The notes beneath the pieces were generated by a model. That model saw nothing but the letters and a program-made list of their open reading frames with translations. It was not told the origin of the DNA and did not search any database. 64,000 nucleotides of DNA from Escherichia coli (GTDB taxonomy: Bacteria > Pseudomonadota > Gammaproteobacteria > Enterobacterales > Enterobacteriaceae). Where the stretch lies: assembly GCF_003790525.1 (NCBI RefSeq), contig NZ_CP033635.1; one strand, 5' to 3'. Of this stretch, positions 539 to 59,353 are shown piece by piece. How positions within the stretch are numbered: the stretch's first letter is position 1; each line of letters starts with the position of its first letter. The position numbers and the translations under genes are program-made.

Positions 539-556
539 TCTCGATTTATATCGAAC

Positions 557-649: not shown

Positions 650-1705
650 ATGGAAATAAGCTTTACCCGCGTGGCACTGCTGGCTGCCGCGCTCTTCTTT
701 GTTGGTTGCGATCAAAAACCACAACCCGCCAAAACCCACGCTACTGAAGTTACCGTTCTTGAAGGCAAAACCATGGGTACCTTCTGGCGTGCCAGCATCC
801 CGGGCATTGATGCCAAACGCAGTGCCGAACTTAAAGAAAAGATTCAGACCCAGCTGGACGCCGACGATCAGCTGCTTTCGACCTATAAAAAAGATTCCGC
901 GCTGATGCGCTTTAACGACTCGCAAAGTTTGTCGCCGTGGCCGGTAAGTGAAGCGATGGCCGATATCGTCACCACCTCGCTGCGCATTGGCGCAAGGACC
1001 GATGGTGCGATGGATATAACCGTCGGGCCGCTGGTGAATCTGTGGGGCTTTGGCCCGGAACAACAGCCGGTTCAAATTCCGAGTCAGGAACAGATCGATG
1101 CGATGAAAGCCAAAACCGGCTTACAGCACCTGACGGTGATTAATCAGTCCCACCAGCAATATCTGCAAAAAGACCTGCCGGATTTATATGTCGATCTCTC
1201 TACCGTCGGTGAAGGTTATGCGGCGGATCATCTGGCACGCTTGATGGAGCAGGAAGGGATTTCCCGCTATCTGGTGTCGGTGGGCGGCGCGCTGAACAGC
1301 CGTGGTATGAACGGTGAAGGCCAGCCGTGGCGAGTGGCGATTCAAAAACCAACCGATAAAGAAAACGCGGTTCAGGCGGTGGTGGATATCAACGGCCACG
1401 GTATCAGCACCTCCGGCAGCTATCGCAACTATTACGAACTGGACGGCAAACGTCTTTCTCATGTTATCGATCCGCAAACCGGGCGTCCCATTGAACATAA
1501 TCTGGTATCCGTGACGGTGATTGCCCCGACGGCGCTGGAAGCCGACGCCTGGGACACAGGTTTGATGGTGCTCGGGCCGGATAAAGCCAAAGAAGTTGTT
1601 CGCCGGGAAGGGCTGGCGGTCTATATGATCACCAAAGAGGGCGATAGCTTTAAAACCTGGATGTCGCCGCAGTTTAAAAGCTTCCTTATCAGCGAAAAAA
1701 ATTAA
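650..1705 (+). CDS. apbE: FAD:protein FMN transferase (ApbE/Ftp family lipoprotein)
   Basis: 351-aa ORF with lipoprotein signal and lipobox (LLAAALFFVGC); recognised as E. coli ApbE. Confidence 0.93.
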   Translation: MEISFTRVALLAAALFFVGCDQKPQPAKTHATEVTVLEGKTMGTFWRASIPGIDAKRSAELKEKIQTQLDADDQLLSTYKKDSALMRFNDSQSLSPWPVSEAMADIVTTSLRIGARTDGAMDITVGPLVNLWGFGPEQQPVQIPSQEQIDAMKAKTGLQHLTVINQSHQQYLQKDLPDLYVDLSTVGEGYAADHLARLMEQEGISRYLVSVGGALNSRGMNGEGQPWRVAIQKPTDKENAVQAVVDINGHGISTSGSYRNYYELDGKRLSHVIDPQTGRPIEHNLVSVTVIAPTALEADAWDTGLMVLGPDKAKEVVRREGLAVYMITKEGDSFKTWMSPQFKSFLISEKN

Positions 1706-1745
1706 AGCGCAAGATTGTTGGTTTTTGCGCGATGGTGACCGGGCA
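1697..1745 (+). promoter_or_regulatory. ada promoter region with Ada box (AAAGCGCA) overlapping the apbE stop codon
   Basis: Sequence aaaaattAAAGCGCAagattgttggtttttgcgcgatgg about 70 bp upstream of the ada start; the Ada-box consensus is read by eye. Confidence 0.45.
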
Positions 1746-1778
1746 GACTAAAGGCTATCCTTAACCAGGGAGCTGATT

Positions 1779-2843
1779 ATGAAAAACGCCACATGCTTAA
1801 CAGACGATCAACGCTGGCAATCTGTCTTAGCCCGCGACCCGAATGCCGACGGCGAATTCGTTTTCGCCGTGCGCACCACAGGTATCTTTTGCCGTCCGTC
1901 TTGCCGCGCCAGACATGCCTTGCGGGAAAATGTCTCCTTCTACGCAAATGCCAGCGAGGCACTCGCCGCCGGATTTCGCCCCTGCAAACGTTGTCAGCCA
2001 GACAAAGCCAATGCCCAGCAACATCGCCTTGATAAAATTACCCACGCCTGCCGACTTCTGGAACAGGAAACGCCTGTAACGCTGGAAGCCTTAGCCGACC
2101 ATGTGGCGATGAGTCCGTTCCATCTGCATCGGTTGTTTAAAGCGACTACCGGAATGACGCCTAAAGCCTGGCAACAGGCCTGGCGCGCTCGCCGTTTGCG
2201 CGAATCGCTGGCGAAAGGGGAGAGCGTGACGACGTCTATTCTTAACGCCGGATTCCCCGACAGCAGCAGTTACTACCGCAAAGCTGACGAAACGCTGGGC
2301 ATGACGGCTAAACAATTCCGTCACGGTGGCGAAAATCTGGCGGTGCGTTACGCGCTGGCTGATTGTGAGCTGGGCCGTTGCCTGGTGGCAGAAAGTGAGC
2401 GGGGGATTTGCGCGATATTACTGGGCGATGATGACGCGACACTAATCAGCGAGTTACAGCAGATGTTTCCCGCTGCCGACAGCGCGCCTGCCGATCTGAC
2501 GTTTCAGCAACATGTGCGTGAAGTGATCGCCAGCCTCAATCAACGCGATACGCCGCTGACGTTACCGCTGGACATTCGCGGCACTGCTTTTCAGCAACAA
2601 GTCTGGCAGGCACTGCGCACGATACCTTGCGGTGAAACCGTCAGTTATCAGCAACTGGCTAATGCCATCGGCAAACCGAAAGCGGTACGGGCTGTTGCCA
2701 GCGCCTGTGCCGCCAACAAGCTAGCTATCGTTATACCTTGTCATCGGGTGGTCCGTGGTGATGGCACACTTTCCGGTTACCGCTGGGGCGTGTCGCGCAA
2801 AGCGCAACTGCTGCGCCGCGAAGCTGAGAATGAGGAGAGGTAA
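1779..2843 (+). CDS. ada: Bifunctional transcriptional activator / O6-methylguanine-DNA methyltransferase Ada
   Basis: 354-aa ORF; N-terminal Cys-rich methylphosphotriester acceptor region (FCRPSCRARH...PCKRCQP), AraC-type HTH, C-terminal PCHRV active-site motif. Confidence 0.95.
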   Translation: MKNATCLTDDQRWQSVLARDPNADGEFVFAVRTTGIFCRPSCRARHALRENVSFYANASEALAAGFRPCKRCQPDKANAQQHRLDKITHACRLLEQETPVTLEALADHVAMSPFHLHRLFKATTGMTPKAWQQAWRARRLRESLAKGESVTTSILNAGFPDSSSYYRKADETLGMTAKQFRHGGENLAVRYALADCELGRCLVAESERGICAILLGDDDATLISELQQMFPAADSAPADLTFQQHVREVIASLNQRDTPLTLPLDIRGTAFQQQVWQALRTIPCGETVSYQQLANAIGKPKAVRAVASACAANKLAIVIPCHRVVRGDGTLSGYRWGVSRKAQLLRREAENEER

Positions 2844-3493
2844 TGTTGGATCTGTTTGCCGATGCTGAACCGTGGCAAGAGCCACTGGCGGCTGGTGCGG
2901 TAATTTTACGGCGTTTCGCTTTTAACGCTGCGGAGCAACTAATCCGCGATATTAATGACGTTGCCAGCCAGTCGCCGTTTCGCCAGATGGTCACTCCAGG
3001 CGGATATACCATGTCGGTGGCGATGACCAACTGTGGGCATCTGGGCTGGACGACCCATCGGCAAGGTTATCTCTATTCGCCCATTGATCCGCAAACAAAT
3101 AAACCGTGGCCCGCCATGCCGCAGAGTTTTCATCATTTATGTCAACGTGCGGCTACGGCGGGGGGCTATCCAGATTTCCAGCCAGATGCCTGTTTGATCA
3201 ACCGCTACGTTCCTGGCGCGAAACTGTCGCTGCATCAGGATAAAGACGAACCGGATCTGCGCGCGCCAATTGTTTCTGTTTCTCTGGGCTTACCCGCGAT
3301 TTTTCAATTTGGCGGCCTGAAACGAAATGATCCGCTAAAAAGATTGTTGCTGGAACATGGCGATGTGGTGGTATGGGGCGGTGAATCGCGGCTGTTTTAT
3401 CATGGCATTCAACCGTTGAAAGCGGGGTTTCATCCACTCGCCGGCGACTGCCGCTACAACCTGACATTCCGTCAGGCAGGTAAAAAAGAATAA
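2843..3493 (+). CDS. alkB: Alpha-ketoglutarate/Fe(II)-dependent DNA dioxygenase AlkB
   Basis: 216-aa ORF, start overlaps the ada stop by 1 nt (translational coupling); contains the LHQDKDE motif. Confidence 0.95.
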   Translation: MLDLFADAEPWQEPLAAGAVILRRFAFNAAEQLIRDINDVASQSPFRQMVTPGGYTMSVAMTNCGHLGWTTHRQGYLYSPIDPQTNKPWPAMPQSFHHLCQRAATAGGYPDFQPDACLINRYVPGAKLSLHQDKDEPDLRAPIVSVSLGLPAIFQFGGLKRNDPLKRLLLEHGDVVVWGGESRLFYHGIQPLKAGFHPLAGDCRYNLTFRQAGKKE

Positions 3494-3568
3494 AAATAAG
3501 AATTATTATTGCTGTGCGCGCGAAGATGTTTAAACTGCGGGCTGTAATTCATTGTCCGGGTTTTCTGC

Positions 3569-5212
3569 ATGGAACTTCTTGTACTTGTCTGGCGGCAGTA
3601 TCGCTGGCCATTTATCAGTGTGATGGCGCTAAGCCTCGCCAGTGCGGCATTAGGCATTGGCTTAATTGCTTTTATCAATCAGCGCCTTATCGAAACGGCG
3701 GATACCAGTCTGCTGGTGTTGCCGGAGTTTCTGGGATTATTGTTGCTGTTGATGGCAGTCACTCTCGGATCGCAACTGGCGCTCACCACTTTGGGGCATC
3801 ACTTCGTTTACCGACTGCGTAGTGAATTTATCAAGCGGATTCTGGATACCCACGTCGAGCGCATTGAACAACTTGGTAGCGCTTCGTTGCTGGCGGGGTT
3901 AACCAGCGATGTGCGCAATATCACCATTGCTTTTGTGCGTCTGCCGGAACTGGTGCAGGGGATCATTCTCACTATCGGTTCCGCGGCGTATTTGTGGATG
4001 CTGTCGGGCAAAATGTTGCTGGTAACGGCTATCTGGATGGCAGTCACCATCTGGGGCGGTTTTGTGCTGGTGGCGCGGGTGTACAAACATATGGCGACCC
4101 TGCGTGAAACCGAAGATAAGCTGTACACGGATTTTCAAACCGTACTCGAAGGGCGCAAAGAGCTGACTCTGAACCGGGAACGCGCCGAGTATGTGTTTAA
4201 CAACCTCTACATTCCTGATGCGCAAGAGTATCGCCATCATATTATCCGCGCAGACACCTTCCATCTTAGTGCCGTGAACTGGTCAAACATCATGATGCTG
4301 GGCGCTATCGGCCTGGTGTTCTGGATGGCGAACAGTCTCGGTTGGGCTGATACCAACGTTGCCGCGACCTATTCGTTGACGCTGTTGTTCCTGCGTACGC
4401 CGCTGCTTTCGGCGGTTGGCGCATTACCGACGCTGCTGACGGCGCAGGTGGCGTTTAACAAGCTGAACAAATTCGCGCTCGCGCCTTTCAAAGCAGAGTT
4501 TCCGCGTCCGCAGACGTTTCCCAACTGGCAAACGCTGGAGCTGCGCAATGTTACGTTTGCTTATCAGGATAACGCGTTTTCCGTTGGGCCGATTAACCTC
4601 ACCATCAAACGTGGCGAACTGCTGTTTCTGATTGGTGGCAACGGTAGTGGAAAATCGACGCTGGCGATGTTGCTGACGGGCTTGTATCAGCCACAAAGCG
4701 GCGAAATCTTGCTGGATGGCAAACCTGTCAGCGGCGAACAACCGGAAGATTATCGCAAACTGTTTTCGGCAGTGTTTACCGATGTCTGGCTGTTCGATCA
4801 ACTGCTGGGGCCGGAGGGTCAACCCGCTAACCCGCAACTGATTGAGAAGTGGCTGGCGCAACTGAAAATGGCTCATAAGCTTGAGTTAAGCAACGGGCGT
4901 ATTGTTAACCTGAAGTTATCAAAAGGGCAGAAAAAACGCGTCGCGCTGTTGCTGGCGCTGGCAGAAGAACGCGATATTATCCTGCTGGATGAATGGGCGG
5001 CGGATCAGGACCCACACTTCCGCCGTGAGTTTTATCAGGTGCTGCTGCCGCTGATGCAGGAGATGGGTAAAACCATATTCGCCATCAGTCATGATGATCA
5101 TTACTTTATCCACGCTGACCGCCTGCTGGAAATGCGCAACGGGCAACTTAGCGAGCTGACAGGCGAAGAGCGCGATGCTGCTTCGCGTGATGCCGTTGCC
5201 CGGACGGCATAA
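3569..5212 (+). CDS. yojI: ABC exporter, fused permease/ATPase (microcin J25 efflux YojI)
   Basis: 547-aa ORF; N-terminal TM domain and C-terminal ABC ATPase with Walker [10 protein letters not shown]. Confidence 0.92.
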
Positions 5213-5417
5213 TATTTCGACGCTGACCTGGCGGACTGCTGCCGCCAGGTCAATATGCTAAAAATCCCTTCGTTTCTAATAACCCTATAATTAATCAACG
5301 AAATTATAATGTTTCTAAAATTAGAATATAATTTATAAACATTATTTAAATGTTGTTACTTAAGTGTTACCGTTGGTGCCGCGCAAATCTCACCTGCAAT
5401 AAAGCGACTAAAAGTAA

Positions 5418-7076
<1,659 letters not shown>

Positions 7077-7077
7077 T

Positions 7078-7215
7078 GATGTGCCACATCCGGCATGGTT
7101 TGCCGGATGTGGCGTATGCTAATAAGACGCGTCAGCGTCGCATCAGGCAACCGGCTCGGGCGTTAGATGTCGGATGCGGCGTAACCGCCTTATTCGGCCT
7201 ACAGGTTGCAGCACT
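7078..7215. repeat. REP/BIME-type repetitive extragenic palindromes (two or more units) between the mqo and eco 3' ends
   Basis: GCCGGATG...GGCGTAACCGCCTTATTCGGCCTAC-type palindromic units typical of enterobacterial REP sequences, in a convergent intergenic region. Confidence 0.7.
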
Positions 7216-7225
7216 TCACAGCAGT

Positions 7226-7714
7226 TTAGCGGACAACCGCGTTGTCAATTTTCTCTTCCGCCTTCCAGACACGGTACTTCACATCCACATTGTCTGGCGT
7301 ATACACCACGATCGGCAGCTTGCTGTTGTAACGCAGCATTCCAGCATCGCCCAGATACGCGGTGACAAATTTCTTCTCTTTCTTGCCATCCGGGCAAGCC
7401 ATCATCGTGGAAACCGGCGAGCTAACTTTATCAAAGACATAATAATCATAGCCCCAGCCTTCCAGCGTTTTGCTTTCCAGCTTCCCGCCGAGACGATGCA
7501 AATTGCAGTCGACTTCCAGCGTCTGACCGATTAACAGTTCTACTTTCAGGGTAGATTCATCTTCTTGCGGAGTTAACTGAATCACCTGACGCTTCATGCC
7601 TTTTTCAGCTTGTGGATAAGGTGCGATTTTTTCCAGTGGCTGGACGCTTTCTGCCGCCCAGGCGGAAGTGGTGGCGAAAGCGGCAAACAATACTGCAGGT
7701 AGAATGGTCTTCAT
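7226..7714 (-). CDS. eco: Ecotin, periplasmic serine-protease inhibitor
   Basis: ORF 7226..7735 trimmed to the [20 protein letters not shown] signal-peptide start (162 aa), preceded by a GGAAAG Shine-Dalgarno. Confidence 0.93.
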
Positions 7715-7848
7715 TTTTTTGCTTTCCTTCTTCATTTATAGGTTTTCACCGATGATGTCGCTGAAGGTTAACATATTCATCAGATTTATTAATTTGCTTT
7801 ATGAATAACTTAAAGAACATTCAGATAATTTTACCTGCTCTTTTAGTG

Positions 7849-8013
7849 TTAAATTCTGATGAGAAAACAAACCAGCAGAAATATCTCTGGCGAATTAATC
7901 GCTATATAAATATGTTTATAACCATTTGAAATGTGAGCAAAAGCCCGTTTTTGCCACGCTTCCCGCCACTCTTTTGATCCTGCTACAGGTTTTACCCCGA
8001 TCGGGGTATGCAT
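7849..8013 (-). CDS. yojO: Small protein of unknown function (54 codons), divergent from napF
   Basis: Hand-translated minus-strand ORF MHTPIGVKPVAGSKEWREAWQKRAFAHISNGYKHIYIAINSPEIFLLVCFLIRI-stop. Length and position agree with my recollection of the K-12 small gene yojO next to eco, but this is not verified. Below the 60-aa cutoff of the ORF track. Confidence 0.4.
   Translation of the reverse strand: MHTPIGVKPVAGSKEWREAWQKRAFAHISNGYKHIYIAINSPEIFLLVCFLIRI
7897..7921 (+). promoter_or_regulatory. Candidate ModE operator in the napF control region
   Basis: atCGCTATATAaatatgtTTATAAcc resembles the ModE consensus (CGCTATATA-N-TATATAACG); the napF promoter is known to be molybdate/ModE-responsive. 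Confidence 0.4.
7974..8008 (+). promoter_or_regulatory. napF promoter: candidate FNR half-site (TTGAT) and a perfect NarP/NarL 7-2-7 palindrome TACCCCGATCGGGGTA
   Basis: Perfect 16-bp palindrome at about 7993..8008 matching the NarL/NarP heptamer pair (TACYYMT-2-AKRRGTA), about 115 bp upstream of the napF start; TTGAT about 15 bp further upstream. Confidence 0.6.
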
Positions 8014-8121
8014 CTTTGACACATCCTTTAATATCTTAGCGGCTATAAAAATGGCTTATTAATTATGCGGTTTATTTGGTCGCTCTCAATTTTCAGAGCG
8101 CGTTAATGATGGAAGGTCAAT

Positions 8122-8616
8122 GTGAAGATTGATGCATCCCGTCGGGGCATACTCACTGGTCGCTGGCGCAAAGCCAGTAACGGTATCCGTCCGCCCTGGT
8201 CCGGTGATGAATCTCATTTTCTGACCCATTGCACCCGCTGTGATGTCTGTATTAATGCTTGTGAAAACAACATTCTGCAACGCGGCGCGGGTGGCTATCC
8301 GAGCGTTAATTTCAAAAATAACGAGTGCAGCTTCTGTTACGCCTGCGCGCAGGCTTGCCCCGAATCGCTATTTTCTCCGCGCCACACCAGGGCCTGGGAT
8401 TTGCAGTTCACCATTGGGGACGCGTGCCTGGCGTATCAGTCAGTTGAATGCCGCCGCTGTCAGGATAGCTGTGAGCCAATGGCAATTATCTTTCGCCCGA
8501 CGCTCTCCGGGATCTACCAGCCGCAACTTAATAGCCAACTTTGCAACGGATGTGGAGCATGTGCAGCCAGCTGTCCGGTATCAGCCATAACTGCGGAGTA
8601 TCTCCATGCACACTAA
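8122..8616 (+). CDS. napF: Ferredoxin-type protein NapF (4Fe-4S clusters)
   Basis: 164-aa ORF, GTG start; several CxxCxxCxxxCP-type ferredoxin motifs. Confidence 0.93.
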   Translation: MKIDASRRGILTGRWRKASNGIRPPWSGDESHFLTHCTRCDVCINACENNILQRGAGGYPSVNFKNNECSFCYACAQACPESLFSPRHTRAWDLQFTIGDACLAYQSVECRRCQDSCEPMAIIFRPTLSGIYQPQLNSQLCNGCGACAASCPVSAITAEYLHAH

Positions 8617-8869
8617 CTGGCAAGTTTGCAGCCTGGTCGTGCAGGCCAAAAGCGAACGAATTTCAGACATCAGCACCCAACTGAACGCCTTTACCGGCTG
8701 TGAAGTTGCTGTCAGCGACGCGCCGAGCGGTCAGTTGATTGTGGTGGTGGAAGCAGAAGACAGCGAAACGCTGATCCAAACCATTGAGTCAGTACGCAAC
8801 GTAGAGGGCGTGCTGGCGGTGTCGCTGGTTTATCACCAGCAGGAAGAGCAAGGTGAGGAAACACCATGA
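8606..8869 (+). CDS. napD: NapA signal-peptide chaperone NapD
   Basis: 87-aa ORF overlapping the napF end and the napA start. Confidence 0.93.
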
Positions 8870-11352
8870 AACTCAGTCGTCGTAGCTTTATGAAAGCTAA
8901 CGCCGTTGCGGCCGCTGCGGCGGCTGCCGGTCTCAGCGTGCCGGGCGTTGCCCGCGCCGTTGTTGGTCAGCAGGAAGCCATTAAATGGGATAAAGCGCCG
9001 TGCCGTTTCTGCGGTACGGGTTGCGGCGTTCTGGTCGGAACGCAGCAGGGGCGTGTGGTGGCCTGTCAGGGCGACCCGGACGCACCGGTTAACCGTGGCC
9101 TGAACTGCATTAAGGGCTATTTCCTGCCCAAAATCATGTACGGTAAAGACCGTTTGACGCAGCCGCTGCTGCGTATGAAAAACGGTAAATATGACAAAGA
9201 AGGCGAATTTACCCCAATCACCTGGGATCAGGCCTTCGATGTGATGGAAGAGAAATTTAAGACTGCCCTGAAAGAAAAAGGGCCGGAATCGATCGGTATG
9301 TTCGGTTCTGGTCAGTGGACTATCTGGGAAGGTTATGCCGCGTCCAAGTTGTTCAAAGCGGGCTTCCGTTCGAACAACATCGACCCGAACGCGCGTCACT
9401 GTATGGCGTCGGCAGTAGTTGGCTTTATGCGTACCTTTGGTATGGATGAGCCGATGGGCTGCTACGACGACATCGAGCAGGCTGACGCGTTTGTGCTGTG
9501 GGGCGCAAACATGGCGGAGATGCACCCGATCCTCTGGTCGCGCATCACTAACCGTCGTCTCTCTAACCAGAACGTTACCGTGGCGGTGCTTTCTACCTAC
9601 CAGCATCGTAGCTTCGAGCTGGCGGATAACGGCATCATCTTTACGCCGCAATCTGACCTGGTGATCCTGAACTATATCGCCAACTATATCATTCAAAACA
9701 ATGCGATAAATCAGGACTTCTTCAGCAAACACGTTAACCTGCGCAAAGGGGCGACGGACATCGGCTACGGTTTACGTCCGACCCATCCGCTGGAAAAAGC
9801 AGCGAAGAATCCGGGTTCTGACGCCTCCGAACCGATGAGCTTTGAAGATTACAAAGCCTTCGTTGCTGAATATACGCTGGAAAAAACCGCCGAAATGACC
9901 GGCGTGCCGAAAGACCAGTTAGAACAACTGGCGCAGCTGTATGCCGATCCGAACAAGAAAGTCATCTCCTACTGGACGATGGGCTTCAACCAGCATACCC
10001 GTGGTGTGTGGGCCAACAACCTGGTCTACAACCTGCACCTGCTGACCGGCAAAATTTCCCAGCCGGGTTGCGGTCCGTTCTCCCTGACCGGGCAGCCTTC
10101 CGCGTGTGGTACTGCGCGTGAAGTGGGCACCTTTGCTCACCGTCTGCCTGCGGACATGGTGGTGACTAACGAGAAACATCGTGATATTTGCGAGAAGAAG
10201 TGGAATATCCCGAGTGGCACCATTCCGGCGAAAATCGGTCTGCACGCGGTGGCACAAGACCGTGCGCTGAAAGACGGCAAACTGAATGTTTACTGGACCA
10301 TGTGTACCAATAACATGCAGGCCGGACCGAACATTAATGAAGAGCGTATGCCGGGCTGGCGCGATCCGCGCAACTTTATCATCGTTTCCGATCCGTATCC
10401 GACGGTCAGTGCGCTGGCAGCGGACTTGATCCTGCCGACCGCAATGTGGGTAGAGAAAGAGGGCGCTTACGGTAATGCCGAACGCCGTACTCAGTTCTGG
10501 CGTCAGCAGGTACAGGCACCGGGTGAAGCGAAATCGGATCTCTGGCAGTTAGTTCAGTTCTCCCGCCGCTTCAAAACTGAAGAAGTGTGGCCGGAAGAGT
10601 TGCTGGCGAAGAAACCTGAACTGCGTGGCAAAACGCTGTATGAGGTTCTGTATGCCACTCCGGAAGTGAGCAAATTCCCGCTATCCGAACTGGCGGAAGA
10701 TCAGCTGAACGATGAATCCCGCGAGCTGGGCTTCTATCTGCAAAAAGGGCTGTTCGAAGAGTACGCATGGTTTGGTCGCGGTCACGGTCACGATCTCGCG
10801 CCGTTCGATGACTACCACAAAGCACGCGGTCTGCGCTGGCCGGTGGTGAACGGTAAAGAAACGCAGTGGCGTTACAGCGAAGGTAACGACCCGTACGTGA
10901 AAGCGGGCGAAGGCTACAAGTTCTACGGTAAACCGGATGGCAAAGCGGTGATCTTCGCGCTGCCGTTCGAACCTGCGGCGGAAGCACCGGATGAAGAGTA
11001 CGACCTGTGGCTCTCTACCGGACGCGTCCTGGAGCACTGGCATACCGGCAGTATGACTCGCCGTGTACCGGAACTGCACCGCGCCTTCCCTGAAGCGGTC
11101 CTGTTTATTCACCCGCTGGATGCGAAAGCGCGCGATCTGCGTCGTGGCGACAAAGTGAAAGTGGTTTCTCGCCGTGGCGAAGTGATCTCGATTGTCGAAA
11201 CGCGCGGCCGTAACCGTCCACCGCAGGGCCTGGTGTACATGCCGTTCTTCGACGCCGCACAGCTGGTTAACAAACTGACGCTGGACGCGACCGATCCGCT
11301 CTCGAAAGAGACGGACTTCAAGAAGTGCGCGGTCAAACTGGAGAAGGTGTAA
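8866..11352 (+). CDS. napA: Periplasmic nitrate reductase catalytic subunit NapA (molybdopterin, Tat-exported)
   Basis: 828-aa ORF; twin-arginine signal ([28 protein letters not shown]); N-terminal Cys cluster CRFCGTGC. Confidence 0.96.
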
Positions 11353-50527: not shown

Positions 50528-50537
50528 TAAAAGGTGT

Positions 50538-50710
50538 GTTACAGGGCAGAAATTTCCTGCCCTGTAACATTTGATGAGCGCAAAGGGAATGACCGGTTTG
50601 TGAATGTAATTTTATGAATTTAAATGGTTTTATCTTTTAGTGGAAACCTGAAACTTTCATCAAACACTAAGGTTATTTCCTCAAGGGCAGATTAATTTCT
50701 GCCCTTTTTT
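50538..50710 (+). terminator. fruA 3' region: perfect 11-bp stem hairpin (about 50538..50568) and a canonical Rho-independent terminator (about 50683..50710)
   Basis: gttacagggcag-aaatttc-ctgccctgtaac, then agggcag-attaattt-ctgccct followed by TTTTTT. Confidence 0.6.
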
Positions 50711-50950
50711 AGTGTTCCTGTTCTGTGCATCCCGTCACAAATTCCCCGTTTTTATAATTCAGGCATTTAATCGCGTTTTGTGAGCCTGCTCAAATCTGCC
50801 CATTTTGCCTCTCTGGCGGTAATTTACTTTACGTAAAACATGCATACTATGAGCACATGTTTAAATATGAACACATGTTTAAACCGTCTTTGCAGTATCA
50901 ATATTCTTGTGGATTGACAGGGTTGGTAATTTTTTACCAGAGGACGTGCT

Positions 50951-51892
50951 ATGCGCGAAAAGGATTATGTCGTAATTATAGGTTCGGCGAATATTGATGT
51001 CGCCGGATATTCACATGAATCATTAAATTATGCGGATTCAAATCCAGGTAAAATAAAATTTACGCCTGGTGGGGTAGGGCGCAATATTGCACAAAACCTG
51101 GCGTTGCTGGGTAATAAAGCCTGGCTACTGAGCGCCGTAGGCAGTGATTTTTATGGCCAATCGCTGCTAACGCAAACCAATCAATCTGGCGTTTATGTCG
51201 ATAAATGCCTGATTGTGCCGGGAGAAAATACGTCGAGCTATTTATCATTACTCGATAATACCGGTGAAATGCTGGTTGCTATAAATGACATGAATATTAG
51301 CAACGCTATTACAGCTGAATATCTCGCACAGCACCGTGAATTTATTCAGAGGGCAAAGGTCATTGTCGCGGACTGTAATATCAGTGAAGAGGCACTGGCA
51401 TGGATTCTGGATAATGCCGCCAACGTACCCGTATTTGTCGATCCGGTTTCAGCGTGGAAATGTGTCAAAGTGCGCGACCGTCTAAATCAAATCCACACTC
51501 TCAAGCCAAACCGCCTTGAAGCGGAAACCCTGAGTGGGATTGCGCTGTCAGGGCGTGAAGATGTGGCAAAGGTTGCCGCCTGGTTCCATCAACATGGCCT
51601 GAACCGACTGGTATTGAGCATGGGCGGCGACGGCGTTTATTACAGTGATATCAGCGGTGAAAGTGGTTGGTCTGCGCCGATCAAAACCAATGTCATTAAT
51701 GTTACCGGAGCGGGCGATGCCATGATGGCGGGACTTGCTTCGTGTTGGGTAGACGGAATGCCGTTTGCCGAATCTGTTCGTTTCGCACAGGGATGTTCGT
51801 CAATGGCGCTCTCCTGTGAATACACCAATAACCCCGATTTATCGATTGCCAACGTTATATCGTTAGTGGAGAACGTAGAATGTCTGAATTAA
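50951..51892 (+). CDS. psuK: Pseudouridine kinase (PfkB family)
   Basis: 313-aa ORF; PfkB signatures PGGVGRNIAQNLALLG and GAGDAMMAG. Confidence 0.9.
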   Translation: MREKDYVVIIGSANIDVAGYSHESLNYADSNPGKIKFTPGGVGRNIAQNLALLGNKAWLLSAVGSDFYGQSLLTQTNQSGVYVDKCLIVPGENTSSYLSLLDNTGEMLVAINDMNISNAITAEYLAQHREFIQRAKVIVADCNISEEALAWILDNAANVPVFVDPVSAWKCVKVRDRLNQIHTLKPNRLEAETLSGIALSGREDVAKVAAWFHQHGLNRLVLSMGGDGVYYSDISGESGWSAPIKTNVINVTGAGDAMMAGLASCWVDGMPFAESVRFAQGCSSMALSCEYTNNPDLSIANVISLVENVECLN

Positions 51893-52818
51893 AAATTTCC
51901 CCTGAATTATTACAAATCTCCCCGGAAGTGCAGGACGCTTTAAAAAACAAAAAACCGGTTGTGGCGCTGGAATCGACTATTATTTCTCACGGGATGCCGT
52001 TCCCACAAAATGCCCAGACCGCAATTGAAGTTGAAGAAACTATTCGTAAACAGGGCGCTGTACCTGCCACTATCGCCATTATTGGCGGCGTGATGAAAGT
52101 GGGTTTAAGCAAAGAAGAAATTGAATTGCTGGGTCGCGAAGGGCATAACGTGACCAAAGTTAGTCGTCGCGATTTACCTTTTGTCGTTGCCGCCGGAAAA
52201 AATGGCGCAACCACTGTGGCTTCAACGATGATTATTGCGGCGCTTGCCGGAATTAAAGTATTTGCCACCGGGGGAATTGGTGGTGTGCATCGCGGGGCGG
52301 AACATACCTTCGATATTTCTGCCGATTTGCAAGAACTGGCAAATACTAATGTCACCGTTGTTTGTGCCGGTGCAAAATCTATTCTCGATTTAGGATTAAC
52401 AACAGAATATTTAGAAACCTTCGGTGTGCCGTTAATTGGCTATCAGACAAAAGCGCTGCCTGCGTTTTTCTGCCGTACCAGCCCATTTGAAGTTAGTATT
52501 CGCCTTGATAGTGCCACGGAAATCGCTCGTGCAATGGCGGTGAAATGGCAAAGCGGTCTGAACGGTGGCCTGGTGGTGGCAAATCCGATCCCGGAACAGT
52601 TTGCGATGCCGGAGGAATCTATCAATGCAGCCATAGATCAAGCCGTCGCCGAAGCCGAAGAGCAGGGCGTTATTGGTAAAGAAAGCACACCGTTCCTGCT
52701 GGCTCGTGTTGCTGAACTGACTGGCGGTGACAGCCTGAAATCCAACATCCAACTGGTGTTCAACAACGCCATTCTGGCGAGCGAAATTGCCAAAGAATAC
52801 CAGCGTCTCGCGGGTTAA
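51880..52818 (+). CDS. psuG: Pseudouridine-5'-phosphate glycosidase
   Basis: 312-aa ORF overlapping the psuK end. Confidence 0.9.
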   Translation: MSELKISPELLQISPEVQDALKNKKPVVALESTIISHGMPFPQNAQTAIEVEETIRKQGAVPATIAIIGGVMKVGLSKEEIELLGREGHNVTKVSRRDLPFVVAAGKNGATTVASTMIIAALAGIKVFATGGIGGVHRGAEHTFDISADLQELANTNVTVVCAGAKSILDLGLTTEYLETFGVPLIGYQTKALPAFFCRTSPFEVSIRLDSATEIARAMAVKWQSGLNGGLVVANPIPEQFAMPEESINAAIDQAVAEAEEQGVIGKESTPFLLARVAELTGGDSLKSNIQLVFNNAILASEIAKEYQRLAG

Positions 52819-52911
52819 TTTCTGACGGGCAGAAAGCCGTCGCCCGTACTGATCATACATACCAAAACCTGGCGCTGACGCCGGGTTTACTGGCATGAAG
52901 GGAAAATCATT

Positions 52912-54162
52912 ATGGATATAATGAGAAGTGTTGTGGGGATGGTGGTGTTACTGGCAATAGCATTTTTGTTGTCAGTGAATAAAAAGAGCATCAGTTTGCG
53001 CACGGTTGGAGCCGCGTTGCTGCTACAAATCGCCATTGGCGGAATCATGCTCTATTTTCCACCAGGAAAATGGGCGGTAGAACAGGCGGCATTAGGCGTT
53101 CATAAAGTGATGTCTTACAGTGATGCCGGTAGCGCCTTCATTTTTGGTTCGCTGGTTGGGCCGAAAATGGATGTCCTCTTTGACGGTGCGGGTTTTATCT
53201 TCGCCTTTCGCGTACTCCCGGCGATTATCTTCGTCACTGCGCTCATTAGTCTGCTGTACTACATTGGCGTGATGGGGCTGCTGATTCGCATCCTTGGCAG
53301 CATTTTCCAGAAAGCCCTCAACATCAGCAAAATCGAATCTTTTGTTGCGGTTACCACTATTTTCCTCGGGCAAAATGAGATCCCGGCGATCGTTAAACCG
53401 TTTATCGATCGCATGAATCGCAACGAGTTGTTTACCGCAATTTGTAGCGGGATGGCGTCCATTGCGGGTTCGATGATGATTGGTTATGCCGGAATGGGCG
53501 TACCAATTGACTACCTGTTAGCGGCATCGCTGATGGCGATCCCTGGCGGGATTTTGTTTGCACGTATTCTTAGCCCGGCAACCGAGCCTTCGCAGGTCAC
53601 ATTTGAAAATTTATCGTTCAGCGAAACGCCGCCAAAAAGCTTTATCGAAGCGGCGGCGAGCGGTGCGATGACCGGGCTGAAAATCGCCGCTGGTGTGGCG
53701 ACGGTGGTAATGGTATTTGTGGCAATTATTGCGCTGATCAACGGCATTATCGGCGGAATTGGCGGCTGGTTTGGCTTCGCCAATGCTTCTCTGGAAAGTA
53801 TTTTTGGCTATGTGCTGGCACCGCTGGCGTGGATCATGGGTGTGGACTGGAGTGATGCCAACCTTGCGGGTAGCCTGATTGGGCAGAAACTGGCAATTAA
53901 CGAATTCGTCGCTTACCTGAGTTTCTCCCCATACCTGCAAACGGGCGGCACGCTGGAAGTGAAAACCATTGCGATTATCTCCTTTGCGCTTTGTGGTTTT
54001 GCTAACTTTGGTTCTATCGGTGTTGTCGTTGGGGCATTTTCGGCTATTTCGCCAAAACGCGCACCGGAAATCGCTCAGCTTGGTTTACGGGCGCTGGCAG
54101 CAGCAACGCTTTCCAACCTGATGAGCGCGACCATTGCCGGGTTCTTTATTGGTTTAGCTTGA
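52912..54162 (+). CDS. psuT: NupC-family nucleoside permease (putative pseudouridine transporter)
   Basis: 416-aa polytopic ORF; near-identical paralog of the ORF at 56099..57349. Confidence 0.9.
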   Translation: MDIMRSVVGMVVLLAIAFLLSVNKKSISLRTVGAALLLQIAIGGIMLYFPPGKWAVEQAALGVHKVMSYSDAGSAFIFGSLVGPKMDVLFDGAGFIFAFRVLPAIIFVTALISLLYYIGVMGLLIRILGSIFQKALNISKIESFVAVTTIFLGQNEIPAIVKPFIDRMNRNELFTAICSGMASIAGSMMIGYAGMGVPIDYLLAASLMAIPGGILFARILSPATEPSQVTFENLSFSETPPKSFIEAAASGAMTGLKIAAGVATVVMVFVAIIALINGIIGGIGGWFGFANASLESIFGYVLAPLAWIMGVDWSDANLAGSLIGQKLAINEFVAYLSFSPYLQTGGTLEVKTIAIISFALCGFANFGSIGVVVGAFSAISPKRAPEIAQLGLRALAAATLSNLMSATIAGFFIGLA

Positions 54163-54229
54163 GTTTCATTGCCGGATGTACGCCTTATTAAGCGTTGCAT
54201 CCGGCAATCGCGCTATTGCAGATTATTTT

Positions 54230-54889
54230 TTACTGCATCATCCCGGAGAATTTATTCTCCGGGTCCATCTCCAGCGCCAGTCCTGACAACTGCTTTCTGT
54301 TTTTAATTAGATATCCTTTCTTGCTTTTAATTAATAAACCGTCGTGAATGAATTGCGCGAGAACATATAAAAGATGTCGATAAGAAACGCCTAAATACTC
54401 TGCCGCTTGCGTATGCTTTTCGTGATAAAGATCACCTTCTTGTGAGAGTAATATAAATGCTGCCAGGCGATTCACTAACGGAAATGATTGATTCTGAGTT
54501 AAAGAAACAATATTGCGATAATTTTTATGGCTTAAACTAACGCAGAGTTTTCGTAAAAATAGCGTGTCGTTTAATAACAGCGGACGGTAATGTTTCATGG
54601 GGAGTGCAAGGCACCAACACTCTTCAATCGCCTGCACCGCACGTGGTTCATGGTCTTTATCGATTAACTCAATCTCACCAATAAAACAGGGGGCGGCAAA
54701 GAAATCGATCAGCGACACGCGACCATTAGCAAGCGTGGCGTAAAGCCTGGCGCGGCCTCGCGTCAGGTAAAACAGCCATGACGGCTGTTGCCCTTCCTGC
54801 ACAATGTAGTCACGTGCTAAAAAATGAAACAGCCGTGCATCGGCTGAAACATCCGTTGAAAAGCAATCCTTAAACGCGGATTCACTCAT
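54230..54889 (-). CDS. yeiL: Crp/Fnr-family transcriptional regulator YeiL
   Basis: ORF 54230..54928; cNMP-binding-like domain plus C-terminal HTH; start trimmed to MSESAFKD (219 aa), uncertain. Confidence 0.88.
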
Positions 54890-55057
54890 CAATTGCTGCT
54901 TAAGATCATTATTGTGGATTTCTTTCACGATATTTATCCGCTATGAGATTTCTCATATTTAGCATACGTACGCTGTTGTTAAGATTCAATCATCGGCCCG
55001 GTCGAATTTTCTTTGCTGTAGAAAAAATAACGCAACTGGAAACAGAGGAAATAAACA

Positions 55058-55999
55058 ATGGAAAAGAGAAAAATTATTCTGGATTGTGATCCGGGTCATG
55101 ATGATGCTATTGCAATGATGATGGCAGCGAAACATCCGGCGATTGATTTATTAGGTATCACCATTGTAGCGGGTAATCAGACGCTTGATAAAACATTAAT
55201 TAATGGCCTGAATGTTTGCCAGAAACTGGAGATTAATGTTCCGGTTTATGCGGGGATGCCACAACCCATTATGCGGCAACAAATCGTTGCCGATAATATT
55301 CACGGTGAAACCGGACTGGATGGCCCGGTATTCGAGCCGCTGACCCGCCAGGCAGAAAGCACTCATGCGGTGAAATATATCATCGATACCCTGATGGCAA
55401 GCGATGGCGATATCACTCTGGTGCCGGTTGGTCCGCTTTCAAATATCGCGGTGGCAATGCGTATGCAGCCCGCGATCCTGCCAAAAATCCGTGAAATTGT
55501 ACTGATGGGCGGCGCTTATGGTACTGGCAACTTCACGCCATCTGCCGAGTTCAACATCTTTGCGGACCCGGAAGCGGCGCGAGTGGTGTTCACCTCCGGC
55601 GTTCCATTAGTGATGATGGGCCTCGATCTCACCAACCAGACCGTTTGCACCCCGGACGTGATTGCTAGGATGGAAAGGGCAGGCGGCCCCGCCGGAGAGC
55701 TGTTCAGCGACATCATGAACTTCACTCTGAAAACGCAGTTCGAAAACTACGGTCTGGCTGGCGGCCCGGTACATGACGCCACCTGTATCGGTTATCTGAT
55801 TAACCCCGATGGCATTAAAACCCAGGAGATGTACGTCGAAGTGGATGTTAACAGTGGCCCTTGCTATGGGCGTACCGTCTGCGACGAGCTGGGCGTTCTT
55901 GGCAAGCCCGCCAATACCAAAGTCGGCATCACTATTGATACCGACTGGTTCTGGGGATTAGTCGAAGAGTGCGTGCGCGGCTACATCAAAACCCATTAA
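55058..55999 (+). CDS. rihB: Pyrimidine-specific ribonucleoside hydrolase RihB
   Basis: 313-aa ORF; nucleoside-hydrolase N-terminal Asp cluster DCDPGHDDA. Confidence 0.92.
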
Positions 56000-56098
56000 G
56001 TGTTGATAACAAGCCGGGACAGTATCGCAAGATGCAGGCCCGGCGATTTCTGATGGGCAGAAAGCCGTCGCCCAAAATGACATGAAGAGATAATAACT

Positions 56099-57349
56099 AT
56101 GGATGTCATGAGAAGTGTTCTGGGAATGGTGGTATTGCTGGCAATTGCATTTTTGCTGTCAGTAAACAAGAAGAGGATCAGCCTGCGTACCGTTGGCGCG
56201 GCGTTAGTGTTACAGGTCGTGATTGGCGGCATTATGCTTTGGTTACCGCCAGGGCGTTGGGTCGCTGAAAAAGTCGCTTTTGGCGTCCATAAAGTGATGG
56301 CGTACAGCGACGCGGGTAGCGCATTTATCTTCGGTTCGCTGGTCGGGCCGAAAATGGACACGCTGTTTGATGGTGCAGGATTTATCTTTGGTTTCAGAGT
56401 ATTACCGGCAATTATCTTCGTCACCGCGCTGGTGAGTATTCTCTACTACATCGGTGTGATGGGGATCTTAATTCGCATTCTCGGCGGTATCTTCCAGAAA
56501 GCATTAAATATCAGCAAGATCGAGTCATTCGTCGCGGTCACTACCATTTTCCTCGGGCAAAACGAAATTCCGGCAATCGTCAAACCCTTTATCGATCGGC
56601 TGAATCGCAATGAATTATTTACAGCGATTTGTAGTGGCATGGCCTCGATTGCTGGTTCGACAATGATTGGTTACGCCGCACTGGGCGTACCTGTGGAATA
56701 TTTGCTGGCGGCATCGTTAATGGCGATCCCAGGCGGGATCTTGTTTGCCCGCCTGTTAAGCCCGGCTACGGAATCTTCGCAGGTTTCTTTTAATAACCTC
56801 TCTTTCACCGAAACACCGCCAAAAAGTATTATTGAGGCCGCTGCGACAGGGGCAATGACCGGGCTGAAAATCGCTGCGGGTGTGGCAACAGTGGTGATGG
56901 CATTTGTTGCCATCATTGCGTTAATTAACGGTATTATCGGCGGCGTTGGCGGCTGGTTTGGTTTTGAGCAAGCCTCGCTGGAGTCCATTTTAGGTTATCT
57001 GCTGGCCCCGCTGGCGTGGGTGATGGGGGTTGACTGGAGTGATGCAAATCTTGCCGGGAGTTTGATTGGGCAGAAGTTGGCGATCAATGAATTTGTCGCT
57101 TACCTCAATTTCTCACCTTATCTGCAAACAGCTGGCACGCTCGATGCTAAAACCGTGGCGATTATTTCCTTCGCGTTGTGCGGTTTCGCTAACTTTGGTT
57201 CTATCGGGGTAGTGGTTGGGGCATTTTCTGCGGTTGCGCCACACCGCGCGCCGGAAATCGCCCAGCTTGGTTTACGCGCGCTGGCGGCGGCGACACTTTC
57301 TAACCTGATGAGTGCCACCATTGCAGGATTCTTTATTGGCTTAGCGTAG
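56099..57349 (+). CDS. nupX: NupC-family nucleoside permease NupX
   Basis: 416-aa polytopic ORF, paralog of psuT. Confidence 0.92.
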   Translation: MDVMRSVLGMVVLLAIAFLLSVNKKRISLRTVGAALVLQVVIGGIMLWLPPGRWVAEKVAFGVHKVMAYSDAGSAFIFGSLVGPKMDTLFDGAGFIFGFRVLPAIIFVTALVSILYYIGVMGILIRILGGIFQKALNISKIESFVAVTTIFLGQNEIPAIVKPFIDRLNRNELFTAICSGMASIAGSTMIGYAALGVPVEYLLAASLMAIPGGILFARLLSPATESSQVSFNNLSFTETPPKSIIEAAATGAMTGLKIAAGVATVVMAFVAIIALINGIIGGVGGWFGFEQASLESILGYLLAPLAWVMGVDWSDANLAGSLIGQKLAINEFVAYLNFSPYLQTAGTLDAKTVAIISFALCGFANFGSIGVVVGAFSAVAPHRAPEIAQLGLRALAAATLSNLMSATIAGFFIGLA

Positions 57350-57404
57350 TGCGCGAGTTATGAGCCGGATAAGACGCGGTCAAGCGTCGAATCCGGCAAG
57401 ATTG

Positions 57405-58493
57405 TTACACCATCGGCACTAATGAAAGCGCGTTATCGGCAGACAGGGTAGGGTTGTTTAAGCTGCCGCTGGCGCGTGAAATTGCCGCGCAGGCCATCGC
57501 AAAACGGGCGCTGTCACGGAAACTGCTTCCTTCCAGAAAGCTATACACCAGGCCCGCCATAAAACCATCGTCAGCACCAAAACTGTCTACCGTCGTATGC
57601 GCTGGCGCAGTCAGCAAAAATTGTTCGCCATCCTTTTGGCTGCAATAAACAGACTCATCGGGCAAATAAACAAACAGTTGCTGAACGCCTTGCTGATGCA
57701 ACGCATTCACTGCGGCATTACGATCAGCATCGCGGGTTATCGGCTGGCCCCATAAAATTTCCAGCTCCGACAAAGTGGGTTTCAGAGTGTGAATATGCGC
57801 CAGCCAGTGTTTGATTTTGCCCGCTTTGAATTCTGAAACGGTATCGACAAACACCGGGATTTCATCAGCGAGGGTAAAGACCCATTCCAGCGCCTCGGCT
57901 GTCAGGTTACAATCTGCCAGTACCACGCCCGCATGACGAAGTAAATCGCGCGACCCGTTCAGTAGTTGCGGTGTCAACTGATCCAGCAGATGGGTATCGT
58001 TAATCGCCAGCACGGTTTGATCGTCTCGATTGGCAATTGCCAGATACGTCGATGTGCTTTGACCATGTAAACGAACGCAGCCGGAGACATTCACGCCGGC
58101 GCGGCGCGTTTCTTCCAGGAGCATTTCGCCATAAAAGTCATCGCCAATCACTGAAAGCAAATGAACGTCGCGGCCTAACAGCGCCAGATTGTGGGCGATA
58201 TTGCGTCCAACGCCGCCTGCCGAGCAATGAATGGTACCGGGATGAGAAGCCGCTTGCGGGTAACGGATATCCGCCATCCCGCGAATATCCATATTGATTG
58301 TCCCCACCACTACGCAGTATTCCTGCTCGGTGAGAATGTAACCTTTGCCTTTAATCCGTCCTTTGCGCATTAAATCCATAATATGCGCTGCAACACGCGA
58401 ACGGCTGATTTGCAGCATATCCGCAATTTCGTTCTGCTGAATCAGCGGGTTACGCCTTAATATTGCAAGGATCTCCTTCTCCCGGTTATTCAT
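57405..58493 (-). CDS. yeiI: Uncharacterised fusion protein: N-terminal winged-helix HTH + PfkB-family kinase
   Basis: 362-aa ORF; N-terminal HTH (EILAILRRNPLIQQNEIADMLQISRSRVAAHI) then PfkB kinase domain (AGGVGRNIAHNLALLG, GADDGFMAG) paralogous to PsuK. Confidence 0.88.
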   Translation of the reverse strand: MNNREKEILAILRRNPLIQQNEIADMLQISRSRVAAHIMDLMRKGRIKGKGYILTEQEYCVVVGTINMDIRGMADIRYPQAASHPGTIHCSAGGVGRNIAHNLALLGRDVHLLSVIGDDFYGEMLLEETRRAGVNVSGCVRLHGQSTSTYLAIANRDDQTVLAINDTHLLDQLTPQLLNGSRDLLRHAGVVLADCNLTAEALEWVFTLADEIPVFVDTVSEFKAGKIKHWLAHIHTLKPTLSELEILWGQPITRDADRNAAVNALHQQGVQQLFVYLPDESVYCSQKDGEQFLLTAPAHTTVDSFGADDGFMAGLVYSFLEGSSFRDSARFAMACAAISRASGSLNNPTLSADNALSLVPMV

Positions 58494-58495
58494 CT

Positions 58496-59353
58496 TCAGG
58501 CTACCGCTTTTTCAGTTTGTTGCGCTTTCAGCCAGGCGATCTCTTCTGCCCAGATATCCGGGTTGATGGTTTCAAGGATCAGCGGAATGCCGTCGAAACG
58601 GTCGTCCTGCATGATCCAGCGGAACGCATCATGACCGATATTGCCTTCACCGAGGCTATGATGGCGGTCAACGCGGCTGCCAAAGGTGCTTTTCGCATCG
58701 TTAAGGTGCATCCCGCGCAGATACTTAAAGCCGACAATACGGGCAAAATCCGCGAACGTTTTCTCGCATTCGGCAGAAGTACGCAAATCATACCCGGCAG
58801 CGAAAGCATGGCAGGTATCAATGCAGACGCCGACGCGGGATTTATCTTCCACGCCGTCGATAATCGCCGCGAGATGTTCGAATTTAAACCCTAAGTTACT
58901 GCCCTGACCGGCGGTGTTTTCAATCACCGCTGTCACACCATGAGTTTTATCCAGCGCAATGTTGATGGATTCGGCAATACGCGCAAGGCAATCCTCTTCT
59001 GAAATCTGCATCAGATGGCTGCCAGGGTGGAAGTTGAGCAAAGAAAGCCCCAGCTGTTCGCAACGCTGCATTTCATCTATAAAGGCATCGCGCGATTTTT
59101 CCAGAGCTTCAGTGACCGGATGTCCGAGGTTAATCAGATAACTGTCGTGGGGAAGAATTTGCGCCGATGTGTAGTGATATTTTTCACAGGCGGCTTTGAA
59201 TTCATCGATGGTTTGCGTCGTGAGCGGTGCGGCACGCCACTGACGTTGGTTTTTGGTGAACAAGGCAAACGCGGTTGCGTCGATTTCGGCGGCGCGAATT
59301 GCGGCATTTGCCAGACCGCCAGCAGCACTAACGTGCGCTCCAATGTATTTCAT
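58496..59353 (-). CDS. nfo: Endonuclease IV (AP endonuclease)
   Basis: 285-aa ORF recognised as E. coli Nfo. Confidence 0.95.

Follow-up and report, generated by a model that had tools for sequence, protein, structure and literature searches.

Apparently nested pseudouridine and pyrimidine nucleoside cassettes in Escherichia coli, and YeiI as a predicted pseudouridine-sensing regulator

The stretch of DNA considered here (the window, 64,000 nucleotides of Escherichia coli contig NZ_CP033635.1) carries a block of nucleoside-salvage genes in which the pseudouridine genes psuK, psuG and psuT are followed by yeiL, rihB, nupX and yeiI. This report concerns the arrangement of that block and the function of YeiI, a protein with a winged-helix domain and a PsuK-like domain that is predicted to sense pseudouridine and to regulate psuKGT. 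The open reading frames (ORFs) correspond to the RefSeq genes fruBKA, psuK, psuG, psuT, yeiL, rihB, nupX, yeiI and nfo, in this order. The 8.1 kb around the block are 100% identical to E. coli SMS-3-5 (NC_010498.1) in reverse-complement orientation, and at least 80% of this region was found in 5367 of 5426 complete E. coli genomes. The genes themselves are already known and the homologies among them are real. YeiI (b2160) of E. coli K-12 is still uncharacterised. Machine-learning tools annotate it as a second pseudouridine kinase; it was called uncharacterised in 2022 and again in 2025 (PMC9061257; PMC12506659) and is listed as a hypothetical transcription factor elsewhere (PMC6055005). A literature search found no paper characterising YeiI, and an in-vitro metabolomics study of 667 E. 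coli enzymes gave no assay data for it.

The pseudouridine kinase gene psuK (50951..51892, + strand) is identified by its RefSeq annotation and by NCBIfam NF007355 (714.7 bits against a cutoff of 540), and its product is without a helix-turn-helix (HTH) domain and has the canonical PfkB motifs NxxE, GxxG and GAGD all intact. On the same strand follow psuG (51880..52818), encoding pseudouridine-5'-phosphate glycosidase (Pfam Indigoidine_A, PF04227, E = 1.4e-132; PDB 4GIJ, E = 5.9e-195), and psuT (52912..54162), encoding a CNT-family (NupC-type) pseudouridine permease (TIGR00804, 516.2 bits against a cutoff of 442). The CRP/FNR-family regulator gene yeiL (54230..54928, - strand; NF007707, 418.5 bits against a cutoff of 180) is divergent from rihB (55058..55999, + strand), whose product is a pyrimidine-preferring ribonucleoside hydrolase of the Pfam IU_nuc_hydro family (NF007417, 727.8 bits against a cutoff of 459; PDB 1Q8F/3B9X, E ~1e-213). 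Downstream of rihB lies the gene for a second CNT permease, nupX (56099..57349, + strand; TIGR00804, 498.9 bits against a cutoff of 442), and on the opposite strand are yeiI (57405..58493; Pfam HTH_24 and PfkB) and the endonuclease IV gene nfo (58496..59353; ORF list and RefSeq), whose stop codon (TGA) ends 2 nt before the yeiI ATG (58491-58498). A preliminary description of this DNA had stated that PsuT and NupX are identical at most residues, that PsuK and the kinase domain of YeiI are PfkB paralogs, and that PsuG and RihB have unrelated folds, and all of this was borne out: PsuT and NupX share 367 of 416 residues (88%) in a gap-free alignment, PsuK is 39% identical to YeiI residues 54-362 (E = 7e-77), and PsuG and RihB reach a best E of 4.2 against each other, with Indigoidine_A and IU_nuc_hydro domains that each match solved E. 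coli structures.

Two cassettes at the psu locus

A context scan of one genome per species yielded 20 enterobacterial yeiI loci. In 13 of them, including those of E. albertii, several Citrobacter, Enterobacter, Buttiauxella, Kluyvera, Kosakonia and Phytobacter ursingii, nfo-yeiI is directly convergent with psuT-psuG-psuK, without yeiL-rihB-nupX. Within this set, yeiL, rihB and a second permease gene lie between psuT and yeiI only in Escherichia (E. coli, the cryptic clades and E. whittamii), Citrobacter amalonaticus S646 and Phytobacter diazotrophicus. Beyond the Enterobacteriaceae the adjacency to nfo is gone and the adjacency to the psu genes persists, as seen at three loci that have neither nfo nor rihB: Affinibrenneria salicis has a YeiI-like gene (with a GADE motif) convergent with CNT-psuG-psuK, locus L029 has one (with a GIDN motif) convergent with psuK-psuG-CNT, and the E. 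coli plasmid p98228 (locus L043, NZ_CP173464.1, 5962-10272) carries psuK-psuG-CNT with a convergent YeiI-like gene. The proteins of this plasmid cassette represent a diverged second copy, with 75-78% amino acid identity to their chromosomal counterparts, and the YeiI-like protein has T187, WMGDES and GADD at the motif positions described below; the cassette sits among mobile-element genes and is flanked by inovirus Gp2-type and AlpA genes. Escherichia sp. MOD1-EC7003 (locus L005) has kept yeiI, nupX, rihB, yeiL and psuG and has no full-length match to psuK or psuT, which suggests that its pseudouridine operon is partly decayed.

The rihB genes show the complementary picture. Orthologues with 85-87% identity are found in Hafnia, Obesumbacterium, Raoultella and Rouxiella, and Hafnia alvei and Raoultella carry yeiL|rihB-CNT as a stand-alone unit in unrelated genomic surroundings that have no psuKG, yeiI or nfo, with a YeiL homologue of 60-67% identity encoded divergently from rihB. 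The three genes yeiL|rihB-nupX are thus a real and autonomous unit. Their intergenic region in the window contains the palindrome TATGAGATTTCTCATA (54942..54957), of which a 15-bp core (ATGAGATTTCTCAT plus flanking bases) is identical in the five genera represented by E. coli, C. amalonaticus, Phytobacter, Hafnia and Raoultella, the remaining intergenic sequence being variable; it is a likely binding site of YeiL.

It is very probable that the locus has a nested architecture, in which a pseudouridine cassette is interrupted by an autonomous uridine/cytidine hydrolase cassette. The outer unit would consist of psuK-psuG-psuT together with the convergent yeiI, and the inner one, which in Escherichia lies between psuT and yeiI with yeiL at its start and nupX at its end, of yeiL divergent from rihB-nupX, with its own putative regulator, palindrome and permease, an old paralogue of psuT. 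The preliminary description had instead proposed two parallel modules that each reuse a kinase and a permease; the reuse of a permease beside an unrelated N-glycosidase stands, whereas YeiI is not in the rihB-nupX module, and the modular picture is hence corrected to one in which reuse is limited to the permease and does not extend to the kinase. The substrate of PsuG is the 5'-phosphate, for which a nucleoside kinase is needed, while RihB cleaves the free nucleoside, so that no such kinase is needed. In its logic the inner cassette resembles xapR-xapAB (PMC11241209), as each pairs a cleaving enzyme with a regulator and with a nucleoside permease of its own, but it has a hydrolase rather than a phosphorylase, a CNT rather than an NHS permease and a CRP/FNR-type rather than a LysR-type regulator.

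The two permeases appear to have separated long ago. At the nucleotide level psuT and nupX are 79% identical, with a dS of 1.30 and a dN/dS of 0.06, and a recent tandem duplication or gene conversion is ruled out by this dS, by the even identity along the gene and by the lack of any identical run of more than 20 nt. The rihB-linked permeases branch as a basal grade of the enterobacterial PsuT clade and not as sisters of the local psuT copies (their monophyly has a bootstrap support of 4-18%), therefore the permease paralogue is old and travels with rihB. Their reported activities differ accordingly: knockout of psuT blocks pseudouridine uptake (PMC13090712), and uridine, cytidine and xanthosine are not taken up by PsuT, whereas NupX imports the first two at low efficiency (PMC11241209). 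These reported substrates of NupX are also substrates of RihB, which hydrolyses uridine and cytidine, in addition to thymidine, deoxyuridine and guanosine (PMC10526354; PMC13389410). A number of E. coli strains have a deletion of nupX and a locus that is about 1.1 kb shorter; in AR_0081 (locus L031, 6780-6845) the annotation shows just a 66-nt remnant. A conserved element of the 5' untranslated region, ATTTCTGACGGGCAGAAAGCCGTCGCCC, lies before psuT at 52818..52845 and before nupX at 56046..56073 (both + strand). The two copies match at 27 of 28 nt and are thus far better kept than the coding sequences, and the core GGGCAG-N-GTCGCCC precedes every enterobacterial psuT/nupX-type gene examined. 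An Rfam search of the region found no known RNA family, including at this 28-nt element.

Domains, motifs and ancestry of YeiI and the psuK promoter

YeiI combines an N-terminal winged-helix DNA-binding domain (HTH_24, residues 1-48, 58350..58493, - strand, E = 2.3e-10) with a PfkB domain (PF00294, residues 58-348, E = 8.3e-68). An AlphaFold model with a mean pLDDT of 91 superposes on the E. coli pseudouridine kinase EcPUKI (PsuK; PDB 7VTD, 7VKP and 7VVA) with a target-normalised TM-score of 0.95 and an rmsd of 1.7 A, so that the PfkB fold is, according to the model, intact. The gene is under purifying selection (dN/dS 0.05-0.10), and within the YeiI clade the HTH domain is 84% identical and its recognition-helix region 90%, compared to 68% for the PfkB domain.

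The residues of the EcPUKI structure (PMC9061257) were mapped onto 94 full-length relatives, which fall into two groups. The first is made up of YeiI orthologues with at least 56% identity, found in Escherichia, Salmonella, Enterobacter, Citrobacter, Pseudocitrobacter and others; the second comprises HTH-PfkB proteins with 42-54% identity from Yersinia, Serratia, Photorhabdus, Xenorhabdus, Pasteurella, Shewanella and Ruminococcaceae, as well as Aliivibrio. About 45 sequences of the YeiI clade keep the pseudouridine contacts N14, D16, S30, Y97, N112, N143 and K170 of EcPUKI, among them the hallmark residues Ser30, Asn143 and Lys170 (PMC9061257), and they also keep K185 and the catalytic D256. 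In YeiI itself the pocket is formed by S83, N196, K223, N67 and D69 together with the conserved equivalents of Tyr97 and Asn112, and the sole change is Met114 to Thr (EcPUKI numbering). YeiI differs from the enzyme, apart from its winged helix and its separate, convergent gene, in the motifs that serve the phosphate donor. The glycines of GxGD bind the donor phosphates and NxxE binds Mg (PMC5931981), and GxxG is the small ATP-binding loop of PsuK (PMC9247573). All members of the first group have GADD for GAGD, have lost both GxxG glycines (Y/C-L-x-D-E/D-S) and have T for N in NxxE (N187); across the clade the four GxxG positions read variable-D-(E/D)-(S/A). The corresponding sites in YeiI, all on the - strand, are G306-A-D-D309 (57567..57578), in which the Asp is kept and the second Gly replaced, Y276-L-P-D-E-S281 in place of S-M-G-G-D-G (57651..57668), and T240-L-S-E243 (57765..57776), the last being weak evidence when taken alone. 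In contrast, the HTH-PfkB proteins of the second group keep all canonical motifs. A fragment 96% identical to E. coli YeiI on a 390-bp contig labelled Acinetobacter sp. A47 (locus L022) is most likely an assembly contamination.

A wider survey covered 139 representatives of 50%-identity clusters, of which 110 bear an HTH domain and 29 are without one. Of the 110 proteins with an HTH domain, 18 have a broken GxGD, against 0 of the 29 others (Fisher p = 0.014); 11 of these 18 are without the catalytic Asp, and so are the closest outgroups of YeiI, which have the GADE and GIDN motifs mentioned above. We give roughly even odds to the broader proposal that YeiI and its relatives form a recurrent class of PfkB pseudokinase transcription factors, in which a fused pseudouridine regulator-kinase repeatedly lost catalysis (in about one in six HTH-bearing lineages) and in the Enterobacteriaceae split into the enzyme PsuK and the sensor YeiI.

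The canonical HTH-PfkB proteins, themselves uncharacterised, share with YeiI the two domains and the recognition helix ISRSxVAxHIM, and differ from it by occupying the position of psuK: seven of seven genes examined lie immediately upstream of psuG and have no further PfkB gene in their vicinity, and Yersinia, Serratia, Photorhabdus, Xenorhabdus, Pasteurella, Shewanella and a Ruminococcaceae genome have the fused protein as their sole PsuK. These fused proteins probably serve as both enzyme and regulator. A neighbour-joining tree built on the kinase domain (bootstrap supports counted as bipartitions) recovers PsuK as monophyletic in 98% and YeiI in 97% of the bootstraps and places both within a clade formed by the HTH-PsuK fusions (93%). 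The Yersinia fusion protein shares 60% identity with E. coli PsuK, versus about 39% between PsuK and YeiI. The simplest history is that a fused regulator-kinase was duplicated, after which the PsuK copy lost its HTH domain and the YeiI copy its donor site.

The region upstream of psuK was aligned from 21 sources. It contains a putative -35 hexamer TTTACT (50823..50828), within a conserved TTTAC(T/A) block, and 16 nt after it a putative -10 hexamer TACTAT (50845..50850), within a conserved block written (T/A)A(C/T)TAT or A(T/C)TAT(G/A)A, both on the + strand. A simple promoter scan did not call this promoter, which is assigned on the basis of its conservation and of a published single-nucleotide polymorphism (SNP). 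This SNP was reported from a long-term stationary-phase experiment at position -126 of psuK (PMC7858067). It falls on window position 50825, where it replaces the third T of the hexamer and yields the better -35 sequence TTGACT. The parental polymorphisms given in that paper include this position too (PMC7858067), hence a claim of parallel selection is uncertain. The SNP fits the promoter assignment and, with it, the placement of the first of two operator-like near-palindromes over the -10 and start region.

These two near-palindromes follow the consensus TGAACACATGTTCA, and a position weight matrix was built from the psuK upstream sites. They lie immediately after the -10-like block, overlapping the psuK promoter, at 50850..50863 (TGAGCACATGTTTA, 19.2 bits) and 50868..50881 (TGAACACATGTTTA, 20.8 bits), the second exactly 18 bp from the first, and are the only matches of at least 12 bits in the 64-kb window. 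A weaker single match (GGAACACATGTTTC, 11.7 bits) at 35230-35243 inside the yej transporter genes has no partner 18 bp away and is probably due to chance. The palindrome is conserved in nearly all psuK upstream regions examined, including those of Affinibrenneria, L029 and p98228, and the 18-bp spacing is invariant wherever the pair was found; the psuK upstream region of Enterobacter sichuanensis gave no match. Close upstream of the fused HTH-psuK genes, pairs with this 18-bp spacing occur in Yersinia, Serratia and Photorhabdus; the fused gene of Shewanella has one strong site upstream, while the matrix scan found no site of this type in the rihB cassettes of Hafnia and Raoultella. In Yersinia and Serratia (loci L023 and L038; -7 to +24) the annotated start of the fused gene falls within the palindrome pair, and the proteins exceed their relatives by 9 residues; the actual start probably lies 27 nt further downstream.

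On this basis YeiI is proposed to be a pseudouridine-sensing regulator of psuKGT that acts at the two palindromes and arose by duplication and subfunctionalisation, a reading to which we assign a probability of about 0.6. Its ancestor would have been a fused winged-helix/pseudouridine-kinase protein. After the duplication, the PsuK copy would have lost the HTH domain and kept the enzymatic role, and the YeiI copy would have kept the HTH domain and the pseudouridine pocket while its phosphate-donor site was altered. A YeiI dimer would bind the two near-palindromes over the -10 region and start of the psuK promoter and repress psuKGT, and pseudouridine or a very close analogue would bind the PsuK-like domain and release the repression. 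From the sequence features described above we infer DNA binding by YeiI, the identity of its ligand, the direction of regulation and the loss of kinase function; since the catalytic Asp is still in place, a complete loss of kinase activity is less certain.

Alternative functions of YeiI

Several observations weigh against a purely sensory YeiI that governs psuKGT. Besides Asp309, YeiI retains Lys238 and Glu243, and T or S at the asparagine of NxxE is also found together with an intact GAGD in otherwise canonical relatives and is therefore not diagnostic alone; the PROSITE PfkB signature, moreover, tolerates D before the catalytic D. A residual or altered kinase activity is thus possible. The operator could belong to another transcription factor. 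In the matrix scan Pasteurella showed only a weak single site, and no convincing match came from Xenorhabdus or the Ruminococcaceae locus. Shared synteny in close relatives carries little weight on its own, the psuK and yeiI allele types are not strictly linked within E. coli, and the gap between nfo and yeiI is 2-3 nt in 20 of 20 enterobacterial loci, so that yeiI is very probably co-transcribed with nfo in the Enterobacteriaceae, which hints at another functional link. The retained residues would suit a bifunctional YeiI that, like the fused HTH-PsuK proteins, is both a transcription regulator and a slow or specialised kinase of pseudouridine or a modified pseudouridine. All nucleoside contacts are kept, the state of the NxxE asparagine is compatible with an intact GAGD in some relatives, and the M114T change in the pocket could shift specificity. 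We consider this rather unlikely, as the second glycine of GxGD, which contributes to binding of the donor phosphates (PMC5931981), is Asp across the clade, both GxxG glycines are gone, the nearest relatives are without the catalytic Asp, and YeiI does not match the signature RxGRGD of pyrophosphate-dependent kinases. A psuK mutant, furthermore, reportedly cannot use pseudouridine, therefore YeiI is no substitute for PsuK in vivo (PMC12506659).

The preliminary description had placed YeiI in a second module, as an active nucleoside kinase working with NupX and RihB in parallel to PsuK-PsuG-PsuT. The adjacency of yeiI to nupX in E. coli, the clear paralogy of YeiI to PsuK and the retention of the catalytic Asp and of the ribose and base contacts speak for such a role, but it is very unlikely: yeiI-type genes adjoin psuT and the other psu genes in genomes without rihB and nupX, the rihB cassettes of Hafnia and Raoultella are without yeiI, the donor-site motifs are altered, a hydrolase of free nucleosides needs no nucleoside kinase, and yeiI lies on the opposite strand, coupled to nfo. 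That coupling, which implies co-transcription, could also mean that YeiI functions with nfo, a SoxS-regulated gene, as a regulator or sensor connected with DNA repair (oxidative or AP-site), and that its place beside the psu genes is only inherited synteny. With yeiI-type genes of Affinibrenneria, L029 and p98228 that are convergent with psuK-psuG-CNT in the absence of nfo, a ligand pocket that is that of a pseudouridine kinase, and no operator-like site near nfo in the matrix scan, this explanation is likewise highly improbable. If the palindromes were bound by another transcription factor, YeiI might act on PsuK directly, for example as an inactive heterodimer partner via the beta-clasp, in the manner of many pseudoenzymes. 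Pseudouridine kinase dimerises via its small domain, with the partner subunit providing Ser30 to the active site (PMC9061257), and YeiI keeps the equivalent of Ser30. Such a role seems improbable, since it leaves unexplained why conservation in YeiI is highest in the HTH domain, the palindrome pair accompanies HTH-PfkB genes in both their fused and their separate form, and no other regulator is consistently linked.

The proposed sensor function of YeiI has parallels in other protein families. The ROK-family repressors NagC and Mlc carry an HTH domain fused to a sugar-kinase fold that serves as ligand sensor, and they repress the matching catabolic genes, as is assumed here for YeiI; their fold, like that of the ROK kinases, is ASKHA/ROK and not PfkB, and to our knowledge they have no homology to YeiI. 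Enzymes that double as repressors include BirA, NadR and PutA, and the combination of an HTH domain with an active enzyme in BirA and NadR parallels the fused HTH-PsuK proteins. The plant proteins FLN1 and FLN2 are PfkB-like pseudokinases without kinase activity that act in transcription, but they have no HTH domain and act within the plastid RNA polymerase complex; the ligands and families of BirA, NadR, PutA and FLN1/2 are unrelated to YeiI. In comparison to the label of a second pseudouridine kinase, a regulatory YeiI is a specific and cheaply testable alternative, with a target promoter, two 14-bp sites, a candidate ligand and named residues. If true, it would clearly exemplify how an enzyme-regulator fusion can split into a separate enzyme and sensor, and E. 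coli would possess a receptor dedicated to a degradation product of modified RNA, with control over a mobile pseudouridine cassette of four genes. The predicted regulation would also be relevant to pseudouridine-production strains, in which psuK, psuG and psuT are routinely manipulated.

Allelic dimorphism and base composition

Within E. coli, psuK with the upstream part of its spacer (50528-51892) and yeiI (57405-58493) each occur in two deeply divergent allele classes (loci L030, L031, L034 and L035). Between the window and the divergent strains, nucleotide identity is about 81% for psuK and about 80% for yeiI, and the upstream part of the fruA-psuK spacer is barely alignable between the classes, whereas these strains match the window at about 96% in yeiL, rihB and nupX and at 98.5% in nfo. 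The dS between type 1 (the window) and type 2 is 1.25 for psuK, 0.99 for yeiI, 0.40 for psuG and 0.59 for psuT, versus 0.15-0.19 for yeiL, rihB and nupX and 0.06 for nfo. Compared with E. albertii, the type-2 alleles show about 92% identity, which is the usual distance between these species, and the type-1 alleles of the window are common to the cryptic Escherichia clades. A strict linkage of psuK and yeiI alleles, as in co-evolution, was rejected, as strains 90-9281 and S42 carry type-1 psuK with type-2 yeiI. The dimorphism of psuK and yeiI is a genuine sign of recombination or horizontal exchange and does not involve rihB.

Horizontal acquisition had been suggested in the preliminary description because psuK, rihB and yejO appeared AT-rich. 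Measured against the 55 genes of the window (mean GC 52.6%, sd 3.2), this is true of psuK (47.1%, third lowest) and yejO (48.5%, fifth lowest) but not of rihB, which is average (51.7%, rank 19 of 55, GC3 z = +0.08). Acquisition thus receives some support from the patchy distribution of yeiL-rihB-nupX and from the psuK/yeiI dimorphism, rather than from AT-richness as had been proposed. The most AT-rich of the 55 genes is yeiL (GC 43.3%), which had gone unmentioned.

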